Positions 2,831 through 39,571 of a stretch of 64,000 bases of DNA are shown here, piece after piece (positions within the stretch are counted from its first letter, which is position 1; each line of letters begins with the position of its first letter). The notes below the pieces were generated by a model that saw nothing but the letters and a program-made list of their open reading frames with translations, did not search any database and was not told the origin of the DNA. The position numbers were made by a program, and so were the translations under genes. Source of the DNA: an uncultured Gammaproteobacteria bacterium (GTDB lineage Bacteria > Pseudomonadota > Gammaproteobacteria > UBA9214); contig CAVQCA010000140.1 in assembly GCA_963710815.1 (NCBI GenBank), positions 4,801 to 68,800 of the forward strand, read 5' to 3'.

Positions 2831-4843
2831 TCAACCGGGCAGCTTGAATCCCGCAACGGATTTGTCGAGATCCTGCGCCAGCCGGGCCAGATTACCGATG
2901 GATTGCGACGTCCGCTCCGTGCCGGCGGCGGTCTGCGTCGTCACGTCCTGGATCCCGTTCATGGTCTTGGAAATCTCCGCCGCTGCCGCCGCCTGCTGCC
3001 GGGCGGCCCCCGAGATGGTCTGAATCAATCCGGCAAGCTGCTCGGAAACGCTTTCGATCTCCTCCAGCGCACCGCCGGCATCCTCCGCCAGGCGGGTGCC
3101 GTTCACTACGCCCGAGGTGCTCTTCTCCATGGAAATGACCGCCTCATTGGTATCCGCCTGAATCGCCTTGACCAGCGCCTCGATCTGCTTGGTCGCGTTC
3201 GCGGAACGCTCCGCCAGACGCTGCACCTCATCGGCAACCACCGCGAATCCACGACCCGCCTCTCCCGCCATGGCCGCCTGGATCGAGGCATTCAGTGCCA
3301 GTATGTTGGTCTGTTCGGCGATATCGTTGATGAGTTCGACGATGTCGCCGATTTCCTGGGAACTCTCACCAAGCCGTTTGATGCGCTTGGAGGTTTCCTG
3401 GATATGCTCGCGGATCGTCCCCATGCCTTCCATGGTACGTTTCACGGCGTTGCCGCCGTTCTTGGCGATCTCGACCGACCGCATCGCCACCTTGGAAGAC
3501 TCGCTGGCATTGTCCGAGACATCATCCAGGGAGTTGGTCATGGCATTGATAGCGGAGCTGGTGTTGACGATGTCATTCGACTGCTTCTCGCTCGCCCGGG
3601 AGAGTTGCTGCGCGATCTCCTCCGTCTCGTGTACCGCGCCCGAGAGCTGCCGCGAGGTCACGTTAATGGTCTTGACCAGATCCCGCAGGGAGTCGACGGT
3701 AACATTGATCGAGTCGGCAATTGAACCGGTAAAGTCCTCGCTCACCGTGGCCCGCACCGTCAGGTCACCCTCGGCCAGATCCCCCATTTCGTCCAGCAAG
3801 CGCATGATGGCTTCCTGGTTCCGCGCATTTTCATCCTCTATGACCTTGCTGCGGCGTTTCTGGTTGCGCAGGGTCTCAAAGCCCATCCAGAACAGGATGA
3901 ACAGCGCCACCGCACCCAGCAGATAAGCCAGTTCCATGGACACGAGCCGGTTATTCGTCATTCCGACATAGGCATCCTTCAATTCATCCGTCGCATCGAA
4001 CAGCCTTTCACTCTGGAGGGAAACGGATTTTGCCGCCGCCTGCGCGCTGACCAGCTCCCTGGTCTTGGCGGTGACGGCTCCGACATTTTTACCTGCACGA
4101 GCGAACAAGGTGGCAATCTGTCGCAACTTCGCCTGCGCCGCCTTGTTAGACACCGCCTGGACGCCACTTCGGCCATTTATCATTCCGTCGAGAACGCGGC
4201 CAAACTCGGCAGTGTCTTTCGCGAAGGCAATCGCCGCTGGCTCGACGTCCTCACCGGTCATGATCCTGTTGATATTGTTCACGATGCGCTGACTGAGCAC
4301 CGATTGGCGGCTCGCCAGGCTGACCAGGGATGCACTGGCCCCGCCCTCCACAAGAATGTCGACCACATCCTCGGAGTTTTTCAGAATGGCAGGCATGACC
4401 TCATGCATCACTCCTGCCGCACCGGCCGCAGCAAGTATCAGTTCCTTGCCGTTGATTACCGCATCGACCCCGCGATTGAAGCTTGCCCAGCTCGTCTCGA
4501 ACGCCTGAAATGCACCGATCAGGGAGCTGCTTTTTATCCCGGAGCCGGGAGTGAACTCCGCGCGCTGTGCGGTCATTATGTTGACGAACCGCCCCCTTGC
4601 CTGGACAAGGTGTTCAAATGCCTGACGATCTCCGGCCGATGCGGCCTGCACATAATTCGCGATACGCTGAGACAGCACCCGTTGCTCGCCAATGGATTCC
4701 AGGTTGCGCTGATCGGTCTCGGCCTGATTGCCGACGTGCACCAGCACACCCACCATCGCACACACCGCACTCAGCATCAGGAAGGTTAGAAATCGCATCC
4801 AGTTGCCGGACCCCAACATCTTTACGTCAAACGTTCCTTTCAT
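2831..4843 (-). CDS. pilJ: Methyl-accepting chemotaxis protein of the type IV pilus chemosensory system (PilJ-like)
   Basis: 670-aa ORF with N-terminal TM, HAMP region and MCP signalling motif (ELINDIAEQTNILALNASIQAAMAGEAGRGFAVVADEVQRLAERS). Sits between pilI and chpA. Confidence 0.85.
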   Translation of the reverse strand: MKGTFDVKMLGSGNWMRFLTFLMLSAVCAMVGVLVHVGNQAETDQRNLESIGEQRVLSQRIANYVQAASAGDRQAFEHLVQARGRFVNIMTAQRAEFTPGSGIKSSSLIGAFQAFETSWASFNRGVDAVINGKELILAAAGAAGVMHEVMPAILKNSEDVVDILVEGGASASLVSLASRQSVLSQRIVNNINRIMTGEDVEPAAIAFAKDTAEFGRVLDGMINGRSGVQAVSNKAAQAKLRQIATLFARAGKNVGAVTAKTRELVSAQAAAKSVSLQSERLFDATDELKDAYVGMTNNRLVSMELAYLLGAVALFILFWMGFETLRNQKRRSKVIEDENARNQEAIMRLLDEMGDLAEGDLTVRATVSEDFTGSIADSINVTVDSLRDLVKTINVTSRQLSGAVHETEEIAQQLSRASEKQSNDIVNTSSAINAMTNSLDDVSDNASESSKVAMRSVEIAKNGGNAVKRTMEGMGTIREHIQETSKRIKRLGESSQEIGDIVELINDIAEQTNILALNASIQAAMAGEAGRGFAVVADEVQRLAERSANATKQIEALVKAIQADTNEAVISMEKSTSGVVNGTRLAEDAGGALEEIESVSEQLAGLIQTISGAARQQAAAAAEISKTMNGIQDVTTQTAAGTERTSQSIGNLARLAQDLDKSVAGFKLPG

Positions 4844-28917: not shown

Positions 28918-29595
28918 ATGGGAACCATCAGGGATTGGCCGGCCGGTGAACGGCCGCGCGAGAAACTGCTCGCTCACGGAGCGCAGGCGCTCTCGGATGC
29001 GGAGCTGCTGGCGATCTTCCTGCGCACGGGGGTGAGCGGCAAGACCGCCGTGGACCTGGCGCGGGAGTTGCTGCAGACTTATGGTGGACTGCGCCCGTTG
29101 CTGGAGGCGGATCGTCGGAGCTTATGCACCATGCACGGACTGGGCATCGCAAAATACGCCCAGTTGCAGGCCGTGCTGGAGATGGCGCGGCGGCATCTGG
29201 CCGAGCAGTTGCAGCGCGCCGACCCGCTGGAGAATCCCGAGGTCACCCGCCGCTACCTCGCCAGCCGGCTGCGCCACCTGCCGCATGAAATCTTCGCCTG
29301 CCTGTTTCTCGATAACCGCCACCGGGTGATCAGCTACGAGGAGCTGTTCCGCGGCACCATCGACGGCGCCAGCGTGCACCCGCGCGAAGTCGTCAAGCGC
29401 GCCCTGCATCACAACGCGGCGGCCCTCATTCTCGCCCACAACCACCCCTCCGGCGTGGCTGAACCCAGCCGCGCGGACATGCAGCTCACGCGCCGCCTGG
29501 TCGACGCCCTGGCGCTGGTGGATATCCGCGTGCTGGATCACTTCATCATCGGGGATGGTGACGGCGTATCGCTGGCCGAATCGGGACTTCTTTGA
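28918..29595 (+). CDS. radC: RadC-family JAB-domain protein (UPF0758)
   Basis: Start at ATG 28918 ([18 protein letters not shown]...); HNHPSG JAMM motif. The last 7 codons lie inside the RIT left terminal repeat. Confidence 0.8.
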
Positions 29596-29601
29596 TATGT
29601 G
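29575..29601. repeat. RIT left terminal inverted repeat (overlaps radC 3' end)
   Basis: 27/27 match to the reverse complement of 32997-33023. Confidence 0.75.
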
Positions 29602-29714
29602 GAGTGCGGATGATGGCGCTGCAGCGTGAGGCCATCATCCGCCCTTTGTACTCCACATAGGTTTTCGCGTCTGACATAGTGTTCTGCCCCCCAACTACGA
29701 CTGTGGAGGGCACC

Positions 29715-30944
29715 ATGAACATTGATCTACGTCCCAGCACACGCCGGATGATCGAAGAGTCCCCGGCGGAGAATGAGGCCATCGCTTTCATCGAGTGGCT
29801 TCGCACCGAGCGCTACACTGACTACACCATCGACTGCCATATTCGACGGCTGCTGTTCGTAATGCCGCGGCTGTGGTCCGGCTCTTCGCCGCCGGTTCTC
29901 CGGGAAGCCGACCTCCTGGTCGTGTTTGGCCGCGAACACCATCCCCGCTCGCGATTCCATGTTTTCGCCGGCACCCGGCGCGTCTACACCCGTTATCTGC
30001 GCGCGCAGGGACGCCTGGCGCCCGAGCCCGCCCCACCCTCTGAGGATATTATTCTTCAGTATGATCAGTATCTTACAGATGTTCGCGGTCTATCTGTTTC
30101 GACCCGCACTCACCATATCATCACTTTGCGCAGGCTGTTGGCGCACGTTCTGAGCCCACGGCGATCCCTGCAGAGGCTCTCACGCAACAATCTCGAGCGT
30201 TTCATCCTCGAGCGCAGCCGGAAGGTCTCCCGTCACTCCCTGCAGCACGAGGTCGCGCACCTGAGGGCGTTCTTGCGCTATGCGTATGATGCAGGTCTGG
30301 TGCACGAGCGCCTCGACGAGCTCGACACGCCGCGCACCTATCGCGACGAGCTACCGCCGCGAGCGCTACCCTGGCCGAGTGTGCTGCAGCTGCTCCGATC
30401 CATCGACCGCACCAGCCGCGGCGGATGGCGCGACCTGTGCCTCCTGCATCTGATTGCCTACTACGGGCTGCGTCCGAGTGAGGTGATCGCGCTGCGCCTT
30501 GACTCGATCGACTGGGAGCAAGAACTCCTTCACGTCTATCAGTCCAAGACGCGCTCGCCACTGACGCTTCCGCTCGACGCGCACACGCTGCAGCTGCTGC
30601 GTGACTACTTGCAGCACGGCCGCGCCGGCTGCGCCAGCGCCTCGTCGATGCTCTTCCTGCGGGCGCGCTGTCCATACATCCCGCTCGAACGCACTGCCGT
30701 CGGAGACATTTTCCGCAAGCGCATGCGCGAGGCAGGACTGCCGGACTGCGCCAAGCACGTATACCGGCTGCGACACACGTTCGCGATGCGCTTGCTCAGC
30801 CGCGGTGTGGGTATGAAGGCGATCGGAGACGTTCTCGGGCATCACAGCTTCTACGGCACAAGTGCCTACTTGAGACTCGATGTGGCCATGCTGCGTAGTG
30901 TTGCTCTCCCAGTTCCGTGCGCGGTGGGAGGGAGCCATGTGTAA
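29715..30944 (+). CDS. ritA: Tyrosine recombinase, RIT subunit A
   Basis: 409 aa from ATG 29715 (GGAGGG RBS); C-terminal catalytic domain with R..HxxR..Y (HTFAMRLLSRGV...YLRLD). Confidence 0.8.
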   Translation: MNIDLRPSTRRMIEESPAENEAIAFIEWLRTERYTDYTIDCHIRRLLFVMPRLWSGSSPPVLREADLLVVFGREHHPRSRFHVFAGTRRVYTRYLRAQGRLAPEPAPPSEDIILQYDQYLTDVRGLSVSTRTHHIITLRRLLAHVLSPRRSLQRLSRNNLERFILERSRKVSRHSLQHEVAHLRAFLRYAYDAGLVHERLDELDTPRTYRDELPPRALPWPSVLQLLRSIDRTSRGGWRDLCLLHLIAYYGLRPSEVIALRLDSIDWEQELLHVYQSKTRSPLTLPLDAHTLQLLRDYLQHGRAGCASASSMLFLRARCPYIPLERTAVGDIFRKRMREAGLPDCAKHVYRLRHTFAMRLLSRGVGMKAIGDVLGHHSFYGTSAYLRLDVAMLRSVALPVPCAVGGSHV

Positions 30945-31908
30945 GCCATCTCCGCTGCATCGCTTTGACGCTGCCGTGCAGGCGTACATCTCGAGTCGGC
31001 GCGCTCTCGGGCGTGCCATCCGGGTCGACGAGTACGTGCTGCACCGCCTGCGGGCCTGTCTCGCACAGGCTGGCTACTCCGACCTCGACGCCCAGAGCTT
31101 CGAGCATTGGCGCCGCCAGCTCCACCACTGCGCCCACAACACCCAGGTCGACTGGGCGATGATGATTTATCGGTTCTGCCGCTACCGTCGGCGTCGCGAG
31201 AACCGATGCTTTCTGCCTCAGCGCGGGACGCTCGGGCGCCATCGGCCGTATCCGCTACCCACGCCGATTGAGGCTGACCAGGTCTGGCAACTACTCGACT
31301 TCATCGACCGCCGTCCGTCAAGTGCCGGTCGTGCCCTGCCACACGCCGTCCACCGTATCGCCATCGTGCTGATGTACACGGCGGGCCTTCGTCGCGGCGA
31401 GGTGGCCCGACTGCGTATGGAGGACGTCGATACAGAGACGGGCGTCCTGCGGATCCGGGGTTCAAAGTTCCACAAGTCCCGGTGGGTACCTCTCTCCCCG
31501 AGCGCCACCCGAGAGCTGCGCGTGTACCTGCGCGTCAGGGCAGCGTTCGTTCCGCGCACCGAGCACAACGCGATGCTGCTCTGCAGGTGCGCCGCGCGTG
31601 GCTACACCGCTGAAGGACTGAGCAAGGCGATACGCGATGTAATGCGCCGCTCAGGCATCTGGACGAATGCCCCGCGCGTGCCACGTGTACACGACTTTCG
31701 CCACGCTTTTGCGGTGGAGGCGCTGCGCCGCTGGTACGAGGAGGGTCGTGACGTACAGTCCGAGCTTCCCAAGCTCTCGATGTACATGGGGCACGTATCG
31801 ATCGCTTCGACCACCTATTACCTACGCTTCATGCCGGCGGTAGTCGCCCTTGCGAGCCAGCGTTTCGCCAGCTCGTGCGTAGAACTGATTGACGGAGGTG
31901 CTGCATGA
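30937..31908 (+). CDS. ritB: Tyrosine recombinase, RIT subunit B
   Basis: 323 aa from ATG 30937 (GGGAGGGAG RBS), overlapping the ritA stop (ATGTGTAA); RHAFAVEALRR...YMGH catalytic residues. Confidence 0.8.
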   Translation: MCKPSPLHRFDAAVQAYISSRRALGRAIRVDEYVLHRLRACLAQAGYSDLDAQSFEHWRRQLHHCAHNTQVDWAMMIYRFCRYRRRRENRCFLPQRGTLGRHRPYPLPTPIEADQVWQLLDFIDRRPSSAGRALPHAVHRIAIVLMYTAGLRRGEVARLRMEDVDTETGVLRIRGSKFHKSRWVPLSPSATRELRVYLRVRAAFVPRTEHNAMLLCRCAARGYTAEGLSKAIRDVMRRSGIWTNAPRVPRVHDFRHAFAVEALRRWYEEGRDVQSELPKLSMYMGHVSIASTTYYLRFMPAVVALASQRFASSCVELIDGGAA

Positions 31909-32936
31909 GTCGCAAGAACCCTACGGCCTTGGGCCGCGATCTGGTCACGTTCTTCGAGGATTTCCTCCCCGTCCAGCGGGGCCTAAGCCCCCACACGATC
32001 CGCAGCTACCGCGACGCGTTGCTGCTTCTTCTACGCTTCACGGCGCGGGAGCTGCACCGCACGGTGGACCGTCTGGACGTGCCGGATCTCACCGTAGAAC
32101 GCATCACACGCTTCCTTGCCGCGCTCGAAGCCGAGCGCCACAACAGCATCGCCACCCGTAATGCGCGACTCGGAGCGATCCACGTCTTTGCACGCTACCT
32201 CGCCGGGCAGTGCCCAGAGCATTTGGGCACCCTGCAGCGGATCATCGGCATGCCGTTCAAGCGAGGGGCGGTAGAGGCTCCGATCGAATATCTTGATCGT
32301 GCCGAGCTCGACGCGCTGCTCAAGAGCATTGATCGTTCAACGGAACTCGGCCGGCGCGACTACGCGCTTTTTGCGTTCATGTTCAACACCGGCGCCCGAG
32401 TCCAGGAAGCGCTCAATGTCCGCGTTGCCGACGTGCGCCTCGAGGCTCCGCCGCAGGTACGGCTGCTCGGCAAGGGTCGCAAGGCACGGACCTGTCCGCT
32501 GTGGCCGGCAACGGCACGCCTCCTGCGCGACCTGATCGCCGAACGAAGTGGCTTTGTCGACGAGTCGGCCTCTCCGCTCGTCTTCACGAACGCCCGCGGG
32601 GCGCCCCTGACGCGCTACGGCGTGTGCTACCTTCTACGGCGCTACGTGCAGAAGGCGTCGCAAGTCGCACCATCCCTCAAGAGCAAGAAGCTTCACCCGC
32701 ACTCGATCCGGCACAGCACGGCGGTGGCGCTGCTCAAGTCCGGCGTCGACTTCGCAACCATCAGTCATTGGCTCGGCCACGCAGGCCTGAACACGACCAT
32801 GCGTTATGCCCGCGCCGATCTCGATCTCAAGCGCCAGGCTCTCGCTCAAGTGTTCCCGGACGCCGTGGCCCCACCGCCCGGCGGGCGACTGCTGCTGGAC
32901 GGCTCCGACCTCGCCGGCTGGCTGCGCAAGCTCTGA
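31905..32936 (+). CDS. ritC: Tyrosine recombinase, RIT subunit C
   Basis: 343 aa; ATGA overlap with the ritB stop; XerC/D-like (RHSTAVALLKSGVD...HAGLNTTMRYA). Confidence 0.8.
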   Translation: MSRKNPTALGRDLVTFFEDFLPVQRGLSPHTIRSYRDALLLLLRFTARELHRTVDRLDVPDLTVERITRFLAALEAERHNSIATRNARLGAIHVFARYLAGQCPEHLGTLQRIIGMPFKRGAVEAPIEYLDRAELDALLKSIDRSTELGRRDYALFAFMFNTGARVQEALNVRVADVRLEAPPQVRLLGKGRKARTCPLWPATARLLRDLIAERSGFVDESASPLVFTNARGAPLTRYGVCYLLRRYVQKASQVAPSLKSKKLHPHSIRHSTAVALLKSGVDFATISHWLGHAGLNTTMRYARADLDLKRQALAQVFPDAVAPPPGGRLLLDGSDLAGWLRKL

Positions 32937-32996
32937 AATATGTGGAGGCCTCCCGCGCGAAAACGCGGGAGGCCTGTGCATGATGATGCACTACTT

Positions 32997-33023
32997 CACA
33001 TATCAAAGAAGTCCCGATTCGGC
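32997..33023. repeat. RIT right terminal inverted repeat
   Basis: Exact reverse complement of 29575-29601. Confidence 0.75.
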
Positions 33024-33026
33024 GAA

Positions 33027-33046
33027 AAATGGTGAGCTCACCATTT
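33027..33046. repeat. 20-bp perfect palindrome AAATGGTGAGCTCACCATTT abutting the RIT right end
   Basis: Self-complementary 20-mer, 3 bp outside IR-R and ~50 bp downstream of the susA remnant on the minus strand. Confidence 0.6.
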
Positions 33047-33089
33047 GCTGGCCGAACGGGGCTGCCTGTAAACGACGAGCATGCCGGTT

Positions 33090-35720
33090 ATGGCAGAAAA
33101 ATCCTCACCGGCCATCTCACCACCCGATGGCGGCGAACGGAACCGAGCAGACCTCCCGCAGCGATTTCCGGGTCCGCACCGGTCGACGGCAAACAGGATG
33201 GTGCCAGTAGCGGGATACAGACAGTATTCGAACCTGCCGTCAGACAAATCCAGGGCCGTCAGTTCCGCATGTCCCCGGCCAGCGGCCGGTATTGCAGGCC
33301 ATAGAACATTTCCAGGTAGCGCCGTGGTCTCCGCGCGGTCAAGATTCGTGACATAACGCCAGAAGCCGTAGACCCTGGAGAGCGTCATGAGACGTTCCGC
33401 GTAACCCTTCCAGGTGTAGCGCTCCTCGACACGGGCCAGTCCGCCCCGGCTGATACGGTCCCATTCAAGCGGGTCCTGGCGGCAGCGGACGAAGAAATCC
33501 GCCAGACGCTCGGCGGCGCGGTCGCCGTGGTTGGGATCGATGTGAAAACCCGAGACATTGTCGTCGAATGATCTCCAGTGGTCCGCCGAAGCAGGTCGCG
33601 AAGGTGGGCAGTCCGGAGCTCATGGCCTCGATCACCGTCAGTCCGAAGGCCTCGAACAGCGCCGGCTGGACGAAGGCGCCGCGGTGATCGGCAACGCACG
33701 CGGTACAGCTCGCCGGCGAACGCCTTTCTCCAGGTGCATCCCCAGCCAGCGCACCTGGCCATCGAGGCCGTATTCGTCCATGAGCCCGTGCATGCGACTC
33801 GAGTCTGTTCACGCTCCTCGGCGTCGTTCGGAACGCGCCGGATCGACGTGCCCCGCCACCACCAGCAGATTGGCTGGCCTCACGCAGGGCCTCCGATTCG
33901 GCCGTACCACTGCACCAGACCGGTGATGTTCTTGATCAGGATCCATGCGCGCCATGGTGAAGATCAGCGGCTTGTCGCGCTCGGCCAGCCGCCGCGGATA
34001 TCCCGGCCCCGTCCTCGCTGCCGAAGAGCAGCTCGCTCGAAATCCCGGCAAGGTGCGTCAGGCGCCTCTCGCTATCGGTCGGCTGGGAAATAGACCTCGG
34101 GGTCGGCGCCGGGCGAGACGATATTGAACTTCGGGATCGAAGACATCGATGCCGTAGCACCACGCGGTAAAGCCCCGGCAGGGTATAAGCGGAATTGTAC
34201 GCCTCGTACTGGCCGACGCTGTCCCCGGTGCCGGCGATCTCCTGGTAGGTGGAGGTGATGATGAAGTCCGCCATATTCATGGCGATCAGGTCGGCGGTAA
34301 ACTGGCTGGAGAAGTGGTAGCTGCGCCTCGTTGTCTCGCCAGTAGAGGTCGGAGTACAGGTACTTGGTCTTCTCCAGCGCGTGGGCGATGTTGCACTGGG
34401 TCACGCCGAGCCGTGCGCGACATCAGCGAAGCCACCAGGTTGCCGTCGGAGTAGTTGCCGATGATAAGGTCGGGCCGATCGCCCAGTTCCGCCAGCACCT
34501 CCCGCTCGGCATCGCTGGCGAAGCGCTCCAGGTAGGGCCAGATCTCGAAGCGCGAGATCCATTGCGGCACCACCTCGCCGGCCTCGTTGCGAAAGGGTAC
34601 ACGCAGGATGCGGGCGTTGTGGGTGCCGGTGATCGGCTCGAGGCGCTGGTCACAGGACGTCCCCTCGGCCTCGGGGATCAGGCGCGTCACCACCAGGATC
34701 TGCGGCTCGATTTCGAGGCCCTGCTCGCTCACGCGCTGACGCATCTCGCGCTCCAGGGCGCGCACCTGGTCGAGGATGTAGACCACCTGGCCACCGGTGT
34801 CCGGGCGGCCCAGCACGTCGGACTGGCCGAACCAGCCGTGCGGGGACAGGATGACGATGGAGAAGATCATCGGGATGCGTGCCAGGAAGGCCTCCAGGTT
34901 GCCCGGCGAGGGGGCCTCCAGAATATCGAGCAGCAATTGCATGGTCTCGATCATGCCTTGCGCGTCCCGACCCCAGCCGGGTTCGAAGCCCATGGTGCGC
35001 AGCGCCGGACCAATCTCGTCCCAATCGGCCGACGGGTCCTGGCCGTGCAGGTAATCGTCGGCCTCACGCAGCGCCGAACGCAGTCCGCCGACATCGCGCA
35101 GGGTCTCGTTCAGCATCAACTGCTGCTGCCGGTAGCTGTGTACGCTGAGAAAATCCAGCAGATGCTTGTCACCCTTGCCGAGCTCCTCGAACAGCCGGCT
35201 GGACAGGCGCCGGTTGAGAAACTCCACGCCGCGCCCGATGGAGCGCGATTCGTGCATCTTGGCGAACTCCCGGCTGAACGGCTCGAGATCGATCTCGAGT
35301 ACGAACCGGTCCGGGTTGCGTTCGCCGTTGACCAGGTGCTCCTTGAAGTGCAGAAATTCCTCGACGGGGATCTCATCGAGTGACATCGTCTCGACATGAA
35401 TACGCAGATAGCTCCAGCGTCCAACCCGAACCCGCAGCGCCAGGTAAACCCAGGAAGCATCGACCGCGGCCTCCTGGGCCCACATCATCACCTTGCCCAA
35501 CGGGGTAGCTCTCAGACATTCGCCGTCGGGCTCCGCGCACAGGGCGGCGAGCATATCCTGGATGTCGCTGCGCAGCAGGAACGTCCGCTCCAGCCCCTGC
35601 AGACGATGCATCACCCGGTGTGCCTGGCTGCGCTGTGTTTGCAGGAAATCCTTCAGGGAACCAATCAGCTCGTTGTCCAGTGTCACCCGAGTCTCCAGGC
35701 ATCGATATGGTGATGGTAGA
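33090..35720 (-). pseudogene. susA: Sucrose synthase (GT4), disrupted by multiple frameshifts
   Basis: The N-terminal ~480 aa are intact in track ORF 34286..35809 (..ILSPHGWFGQSDVLGRPDTGGQVVYILDQVRALE..IIGNYSDGNLVAS). The remainder is scattered over at least 6 further frame segments carrying successive sucrose-synthase motifs: ..[19 protein letters not shown] (34072..34404); [32 protein letters not shown] (33936..34280); [16 protein letters not shown] (34072..34404); [24 protein letters not shown] (33809..34051); [33 protein letters not shown] (33465..33812); [17 protein letters not shown] (33038..33388). Confidence 0.65.
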
Positions 35721-39159: not shown

Positions 39160-39396
39160 ATGTCCAGAGTATGCCAGGTCACGGGGAAACGGCCGATGTA
39201 CGGCAATAACGTATCCCATGCCAATAACAAGACGCGGCGGCGTTTCCTGCCCAATCTGCATGAACACCGTTTCTGGGTGGACGGTGAGAAGCGCTGGGTG
39301 ACGTTGCGCGTTTCCGGCAAGGGCATGCGCATCATCGACAAACGGGGCATCGACGCGGTGCTGGCGGACATCCGCGCCCGCGGCGTAAAGGTCTAG
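39160..39396 (+). CDS. rpmB: 50S ribosomal protein L28
   Basis: 78 aa, [29 protein letters not shown]. Confidence 0.9.
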
Positions 39397-39415
39397 AACG
39401 ATCCAGGAGTCTCCC

Positions 39416-39571
39416 ATGCGTGACAAGATCAAACTCATCTCCAGCGCCGGCACCGGCCATTACTACACCACGACCAAGAACAAGCGCACCATGCCGGAAA
39501 AAATGGAAATCAAGAAATTCGATCCGGTGGTCCGCAAGCACGTGATCTACAAGGAAGGCAAGATCAAGTGA
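39416..39571 (+). CDS. rpmG: 50S ribosomal protein L33
   Basis: 51-aa ORF ([51 protein letters not shown]) read directly. Not in the track because it is under 60 aa. Confidence 0.85.

Follow-up and report, generated by a model that had tools for sequence, protein, structure and literature searches.

An intact Recombinase-In-Trio element in the last codons of radC: boundaries, substitute gene end, and displaced native tail

A 64,000-nucleotide stretch of DNA from an uncultured Gammaproteobacteria bacterium of the lineage UBA9214 (assembly GCA_963710815.1, contig CAVQCA010000140.1, positions 4,801 to 68,800 of the forward strand; hereafter, the window) carries an intact, cargo-free Recombinase-In-Trio (RIT) mobile element in the last codons of radC. 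The element is a typical new copy of an already known class, and the tie of its clade to radC had been noticed earlier, anecdotally. Comparison with element-free relatives indicates that it is very probably a site-specific integrant with bounds at 29581 and 33056. RITs of the radC-associated clade as a whole are likely to be site-specific for the final codons of radC-family genes, with integration by the steps proposed below. A preliminary description of the window, made from its letters alone, had recognized the element but placed its ends elsewhere.

Empty sites were found in relatives at two loci, L105, in which RadC is 98% identical to that of the window, and L106, in which RadC is 91% identical and the gene order is dut, coaBC, radC, a convergent intact gene for sucrose synthase of 802 amino acid residues, PfkB, and SPS. 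When 29301–29580 of the window was joined to 33057–33500, the resulting sequence was colinear with L105, with the junction at 29580/33057, where the window flanks meet at GCTGGCCGAA/CGGGGC. Because the flanks are colinear with this RIT-free locus, the DNA between them was assigned to the insertion (Table 1). The segment GCTGGCCGAA is present at both junctions in the window and in a single copy in L105. A palindrome at the far end of the insertion is absent from L105 and L106 and therefore belongs to the element. As a candidate for a terminator of host radC, this palindrome was ruled out by the same absence and by its travelling with the element into unrelated contexts.

The insertion leaves radC with a different end but the same length. 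The gene encodes 225 amino acid residues with or without the element, and it stays full length because the element brings a mimic tail encoding SGLL-stop. On the far side, the outer arm of the palindrome in the window runs in frame from CTCACCATTTGCTGGCCGAA into CGGGGCTGCCTGTAA, encoding ...LLAERGCL-stop. The native end of RadC was predicted from this displaced tail and was then met, as SLAERGC(L/M), in the nine closest orthologues (87–98% identical). Among the 120 closest clusters, the C-terminus was AE(R/K/C)G.. in 117 and AESG.. in 3. Since radC genes without the element end differently (AERG.. versus AESG..), the repeat that covers the gene end is element-borne and not a coincidental duplication of the target, the outcome by which the preliminary description would have been refuted. 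The junctions thus have the make-up of a gene-end replacement, that is, a shared junction segment, a single copy of it in the empty site, and a restored reading frame.

The 27-mer GCCGAATCGGGACTTCTTTGATATGTG has two exact copies in the 64 kb, at 29575–29601 on the plus strand and 32997–33023 on the minus strand, in agreement with the preliminary description. No such inverted repeat arose in 100 shuffles with three mismatches tolerated, and the repeat lengthens to 31 nt at 97% identity. These copies had been read as the termini of the element, with the right bound at 33023. The perfect inverted pair stands, but its role does not. The left copy is a hybrid junction, composed of host radC up to ...GCTGGCCGAA (GAA) followed by the TCGGGACTTCTTTGA mimic and the first ATATGTGGAG box of the element, and it holds six radC codons and the stop (AESGLL-stop) instead of the last seven codons. 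The right copy lies wholly within the element and is its attachment site, intact and in inverted orientation; the empty site places the right bound 33 bp farther out. Outward from the right repeat follow first the inner palindrome arm, then the outer arm (the left half of the attachment site that took part in the exchange), and last the stranded native tail. These observations bear on whether the element is a classical transposon, in which the 27-bp repeats would be equivalent termini of 29575–33023 and the overlap with radC would reflect a target resembling, or duplicated from, the terminus. Such a transposon would account for the perfect inverted repeat at both ends, and RITs have been reported with terminal inverted repeats of 28–34 bp. 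We nevertheless regard it as very unlikely: the right bound set by the empty site is 33056 and not 33023, the left repeat is made up of host as well as element sequence, the palindrome and the displaced host tail are found beyond the right repeat in 29–36 independent flanks, and the junctions share a direct repeat with no target duplication around the inverted ends.

Exact-protein look-up, together with scans of collections of genomes and metagenomes, supplied the contexts of relatives. RitA homologues formed more than 100 clusters at 76–93% identity. The flank census was based on elements whose RitB was at least 70% identical, and after removal of duplicates about 70 flanks were long enough to classify. 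The inverted repeat was found at both ends in every related copy examined, so that its sharing by other copies, without which the preliminary description would have been refuted, was borne out, and reading inward from every end gave GAA/TCGGGACTTCTTTGA-TATGTGGAG. The approximately 70 distinct flanks comprised 31 radC 3′ ends, 36 palindromes, and 3 that were neither. The radC flanks ended in ...VLDH...SFAE/SGLL-stop. The family palindrome opposite radC was GGCGAAAAATGGTGAGC·GCTCACCATTTTTCGCC, and its outer arm continued in frame as F-A-E-R-G-(L/W/C)-(L/I/V/M)-stop in 29 distinct flanks. Both orientations of the element are common, since radC adjoins the ritA end of the element in 13 flanks and the ritC end in 16–18; in either orientation, the palindrome and the displaced tail stand opposite radC.

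More than one radC paralogue serves as the target. The 225-residue chromosomal gene adjoining coaBC is used in the window and in L005, and paralogues of 160 residues are also targeted, the copy in L001 lying beside the relaxase and coupling-protein genes TrwC/TrwB. In one sample series, elements 97–99% identical were found at the chromosomal radC and at a radC paralogue of 164 residues. In Salmonella enterica GCA_042912005.1 (L110:4729–8158), a RIT of the clade is located between a yeeS-like radC (159 residues, beside an anti-restriction gene) and yeeT/cbeA/cbtA of a CP4-type island, and the displaced tail there is FAEKGWL-stop. Taken together, the empty sites, the near-identical copies at different radC loci, and the dozens of independent contexts indicate that the element is mobile as a unit. 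Mis-assembly as the origin of the inverted repeat and the radC fusion is effectively refuted. Assemblers can make inverted-repeat chimeras, and L025, L030, L033, and L099 are perhaps such, but over 40 independent assemblies from different projects, an isolate genome among them, share the same junctions, and the displaced tail agrees with the RadC orthologues of the lineage itself.

The point of exchange was narrowed by bases that differ between host and element. Host-specific bases of the Leu codon (CTG/TTG versus TTC/TTT in the element) occur at both junctions in the window, L037, L039, L051, and L070, and element-type bases at the radC-side junction start at the Ala or the Glu codon (GCG in L051; GAA versus host GAG in L037). 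For these reasons, the exchange is bracketed to about 10 bp over the (F/L)-A-E codons. In the family, this region is centred on the 9-mer TTCGNCGAA, which is palindromic save for its middle base. Mixed parentage within it would be expected of a heteroduplex overlap region.

A joined-end mechanism with two usable sites accounts for these junctions, and on balance we favour it. Circularisation would join 33056 to 29581 and recreate CACCATTT..GCCGAA-TCGGGACTTCTTTGATATGTGGAG, matching the inverted internal site. In consensus elements, joining of the ends would yield a perfect palindrome about 90 bp long, in which two radC-tail mimics (FFAESGLL-stop) stand inverted to each other, and the recombinases would exchange either mimic with a chromosomal or plasmid radC tail at the Phe/Leu-Ala-Glu codons. 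Because either of the two inverted mimics would be usable, relatives would occur in either orientation, and the palindrome and displaced tail would in each case lie distally. In the window, host radC lies to the left of the exchange region and the element tail SGLL-stop to its right, the native RGCL-stop is at the far junction, and the second inverted site is present just inside that junction, to which the inner palindrome arm links it. Recombinase binding, or an architectural role, is probable for the four ATATGTGGAG boxes and for the hairpins that lie between them. Recombination of attL with attR would be expected to restore native radC exactly.

The end modules were examined in the window and in relatives. 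The nested palindromes named in the preliminary description are present at both ends: TATGTGGAGT (29596–29605) pairs with ACTCCACATA (29650–29659) on the left, and ATATGTGGAG (32938–32947) pairs with CTTCACATAT (32994–33003) on the right, each enclosing an inner pair (Table 1). In relatives, each end consists of ATATGTGGAG, a hairpin of 40–50 nt, and CTCCACATA. Compensatory changes were found at four base pairs per end module in the main subclade, and in other subclades the hairpin is swapped for unrelated sequences with pairing kept. Because these unrelated hairpins still pair, it is the pairing and not the sequence that appears to be selected. The modules are probably recombinase-binding or architectural sites. 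A simple terminator scan did not call the end hairpins intrinsic terminators; they may also shield the rit genes against read-through from radC.

This architecture also invites a single-strand reading of the integration step, in which the palindrome of about 90 bp would fold to a duplex attachment site, one strand would be exchanged with radC, and replication would finish the process, in the manner of CTX phage at dif or of integron attC sites. The product it predicts, with two inverted sites retained at one end, is the one observed, although double-strand integration yields an identical product. The conserved inverse boxes around variable but always pairing centres are like those of attC, and the left hairpin contains many G-U type pairs, suggesting that one strand folds. 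A mobilome study of 2017 found RIT DNA to be nuclease-protected, detected no circle junctions, reported palindromes of 47–51 bp, and proposed hairpin forms (PMC5737581). On the other hand, the covariation is modest, at four compensatory pairs per module, and the element bears no sign of a function that generates single strands. We consider exchange through a folded single strand distinctly unlikely. A broader proposal, which is speculative and improbable in our estimate, holds that RITs of this clade move otherwise than as ordinary double-stranded circles, that their joined ends make a long perfect palindrome whose folding, in a single strand or a cruciform, gives one duplex radC-tail mimic, that a heteromeric RitABC recombines this mimic with radC, and that the core also flips in place. 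If this were true, RITs would be the third case of tyrosine recombination on a hairpin substrate, after CTX-type phages and integron cassettes, and the failure to detect circle junctions would be explained.

Inversion in place was weighed in its own right. Recombination between the left junction and the inverted internal site may allow the recombinases to flip the 3.4-kb core, a possibility that we hold with limited confidence and that may act alongside integration; it is likewise only a tentative suggestion that the orientations among relatives are switch states and not independent insertions. Orthologous loci with radC and sucrose synthase genes bear the core in opposite orientations, in the window on the one hand and in L006 and L010 on the other. 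The compared lineages are only about 90% identical, however, and independent insertions are equally possible. The two sites share 27–44 bp of identity, including the near-palindromic 9-mer, and L025 bears the same radC arm at each end. Assemblies often break exactly at the repeats. In many of them, the core forms its own contig of 3.33–3.45 kb, and L016, a 3395-bp contig of the uncultured Chromatiaceae metagenome-assembled genome SRP214966_co3_44, matches 29602–32996 of the window, the span between the perfect repeats, at 99.8%, which suggests that the assembly graph breaks at the repeats. Such separate core contigs fit multiple copies or in-place inversion equally, as contig breaks also come from multi-copy repeats, and this support comes from assemblies and not from reads. 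No obvious switched gene or promoter is present, and radC reads the same tail either way.

Several points weigh against the integration model with joined ends. All evidence for the mechanism is comparative and comes mostly from metagenome assemblies. None of the contigs examined contained an excised circle or a joined-ends sequence, and there was no match to the palindrome in IMG/VR; the circular intermediate is one that we infer. The exchange region is resolved to about 10 bp at best, and the cleavage points are beyond the data. Relative to the consensus, the outer palindrome arm of the window has 1 extra nt, a difference not expected from strictly conservative exchange. Three flanks, in L032, L046, and L090, have neither radC nor the palindrome. 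The palindrome is present at both sides in L030 and L033, and radC at both sides in L025; the flanks of L030 are the downstream regions of two different radC genes. These three loci, which a single insertion does not predict, may reflect recombination between copies, in-place inversion in mixed populations, or assembly chimeras. In RitA, Tyr350 replaces the usual first His of the H-x-x-R motif (window 30762–30773), and the KHVY form is found in 112 of 120 homologues.

The preliminary description of a complete trio of intact genes was confirmed. All three co-oriented, adjacent open reading frames (ORFs) match Pfam PF00589 Phage_integrase, with E values of 8e-25, 6.5e-22, and 2.7e-30 for RitA, RitB, and RitC, respectively. 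Catalytic residues were assigned from alignments to XerA and XerD. The candidates are R253, K278, Y350-x-x-R353, H376, and Y385 in RitA; R152, K177, H252-x-x-R255, H286, and Y295 in RitB; and R165, K189/192, H266-x-x-R269, H292, and Y301 in RitC, so that the tyrosine-recombinase catalytic set is, as judged from these alignments, retained in all three. RitA, whose N-terminal part is extended, is the longest of the trio, and RitC is extended at its C-terminus, both as described for RIT proteins (PMC8138268). The genes overlap as previously noted, by 8 bp (ATGTGTAA, 30937–30944) between ritA and ritB and by 4 bp (ATGA, 31905–31908) between ritB and ritC, within the range of 4–8 bp given as a criterion for RITs (PMC3414803). 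The unit of about 3.5 kb, the 27/31-bp inverted repeat, and the nested palindromes at both ends are likewise those of a RIT, with 33 bp added on one side according to the empty site. A promoter scan found no sigma-70-like promoter. The coordinates of all features are collected in Table 1.

Table 1. Features of the RIT element and of the radC end in the window
Feature	Position	Strand	Description
Inserted DNA (RIT element)	29581–33056	+	3476 bp, delimited by the empty site L105
radC	28918–29595	+	225 amino acid residues; Pfam RadC (JAB) and UPF0758_N; stop inside the left repeat
Element-supplied end of radC	29581–29595	+	5 codons including the stop, TCGGGACTTCTTTGA = SGLL-stop
attL exchange region	29571–29580	+	GCTGGCCGAA; direct repeat of 33047–33056
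Left inverted-repeat arm	29575–29605	+	radC-tail mimic and first ATATGTGGAG box; perfect across 29575–29601
Left end module	29595–29659	+	putative site; inverted 10-mers ATATGTGGAG / CTCCACATA around the hairpin 29606–29617 / 29631–29642
ritA	29715–30944	+	tyrosine recombinase of 409 amino acid residues
ritB	30937–31908	+	tyrosine recombinase of 323 amino acid residues; 8-bp overlap with ritA
ritC	31905–32936	+	tyrosine recombinase of 343 amino acid residues; 4-bp overlap with ritB
Right end module	32938–33003	+	putative site; ATATGTGGAG / CTTCACATAT around the G+C-rich hairpin 32947–32957 / 32964–32974 and a small hairpin 32976–32991
Right inverted-repeat arm	32993–33023	-	intact, inverted, element-borne radC-tail mimic = unused attachment site
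Conserved palindrome	33017–33056	.	TTCGGCGAAAAATGGTGAG / CTCACCATTTGCTGGCCGAA, centre 33036/33037; outer arm stops at attR
Displaced native radC tail	33057–33071	+	CGGGGCTGCCTGTAA = RGCL-stop, stranded by the insertion

The sucrose synthase gene to the right of the element is a pseudogene (33262–35686, minus strand), as the preliminary description had it. It stays in frame for about 424 residues, followed by at least seven stops or frame changes, and hops repeatedly between two frames; the adjacent PfkB and SPS genes look intact. The sucrose synthase is intact, with 801–802 residues, in the element-free L106 and in the RIT-bearing L006. The element had also been placed directly between radC and rpmB-rpmG, but rpmB/rpmG are located at 39160–39571, past a 6-kb sucrose gene cluster, and this cluster is also present in the element-free L106.

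Several relatives showed additional features. In L046 (5600–8054), and also in L042, L044, and L049–L053, the end sites are separated by 4.2–5.8 kb, and additional DNA follows ritC before the far end. Since the additional DNA of L046 codes for two proteins, an MFS transporter and an FMN reductase, members of the radC clade can carry passenger genes. In L023 (at about 8351, minus strand), the displaced tail past the palindrome is followed by TATGAGGAG, a degenerate element box, which suggests insertion of an element into the mimic tail of an earlier one that has since decayed; a regenerated tail would stay a target. More distant RITs (RitB 31–49% identical) are not beside radC, with the sole exception of L099. 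There, a RIT with a RitB 32% identical lies between inverted duplications of 280 nt (94%) and 170 nt (84%) at 173–666 and 4136–4631, which hold radC 3′ fragments directed away from the element; this may be another mode of radC association or a chimera of two strains in the assembly.

Searches of individual collections were also carried out. The RitC exact-protein look-up returned no identical protein on record. In PLSDB, megablast gave no match to the element, and the protein search gave only homologues less than 60% identical, none of the radC-targeting clade; plasmid-borne RitA homologues were 44–50% identical. Distant blastn against 5,426 E. coli genomes gave no match to the element. A RitA scan of genome contigs yielded 9 loci, one of which, L024, was dropped as a relative, being the housekeeping xerD of Jeotgalicoccus. 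The names of the homologue-cluster members showed no link to Cupriavidus or Bordetella.

RITs were described between 2009 and 2013. The trio ritA2B2C2 of Cupriavidus metallidurans CH34 was reported as one that "apparently inactivates" radC, and a trio of Bordetella petrii as doing likewise (PMC2864759); RIT6 was placed within radC of Tn6054 ("data not shown"), and a 28–29-bp inverted repeat with overlapping palindromes was mentioned (Van Houdt et al. 2012, PMC3414803). A comparison of tyrosine-recombinase transposons from 2023 listed the target specificity, empty site, and movement of RITs as not tested. The preliminary statement that RITs are mechanistically uncharacterised is fair, although insertion in radC had already been noted for two of them (PMC2864759, PMC3414803). 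In the literature searched, only these papers of 2010 and 2012 link RITs to radC; Ricker et al. 2013 lay outside the search and may already describe the radC target. What is added here to the 2010 and 2012 reports is the exact bounds, the replacement of the tail without truncation of radC, the stranded native tail, the hidden third half-site with its palindrome, the both-orientation rule over dozens of loci, and the matching empty sites.

These results provide a falsifiable model of RIT movement, with a target at the radC end (Phe/Leu-Ala-Glu-Arg-Gly codons), defined junctions, a predicted joined-end palindrome, and a predicted product of precise excision, and the copy in the Salmonella isolate offers a culturable host. 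The radC family includes both a near-universal chromosomal gene and genes in transfer-proximal regions of conjugative elements and islands. Targeting radC therefore gives the element a safe harbour as well as a ride between cells through one site, and some relatives in the clade have passenger genes.

The closest described systems are RIT6 of island CMGI-2/Tn6054 in CH34 and Bpet1498-1500 of B. petrii. Like the window element, they have an A-B-C trio with overlaps of 4–8 bp, a size of about 3.5 kb, and a 28–34-bp inverted repeat over palindromes. They were reported within radC of integrative conjugative elements, whereas the radC of the window is the chromosomal housekeeping gene. The reports describe radC as inactivated, without boundaries, target site, or empty site, whereas radC in the window is full length; the comparison is by description only. 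Tn554, which uses att554 in Staphylococcus radC, also has tyrosine recombinases, high specificity for the radC 3′ region, and junction bases that vary with the history of the element. It differs in having two recombinases (TnpA and TnpB) with TnpC, no inverted repeats, and Firmicute hosts, and in truncating radC, and nothing indicates that its insertion involves the same codons. With three recombinases, no TnpC-like ORF, and inverted repeats, the window element lacks the features of the Tn554 family, and the shared radC target is a parallel and not evidence of membership. The attP(+) of CTX phage and the attC of integrons resemble the RIT sites as inverted sites foldable to one duplex site, with inverse boxes round a variable pairing centre, but their recombinases and sites differ from those of RITs, for which a single-stranded stage is hypothetical. 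Integrases of the tRNA/tmRNA type carry out a conservative exchange inside a gene end, supply a substitute end, and leave the displaced original at the far junction. The window RIT presents the same gene-end replacement as elements targeting tRNA and tmRNA genes, but whereas those have one integrase, a single attP, and one orientation, it has three recombinases and two inverted attP-like sites.

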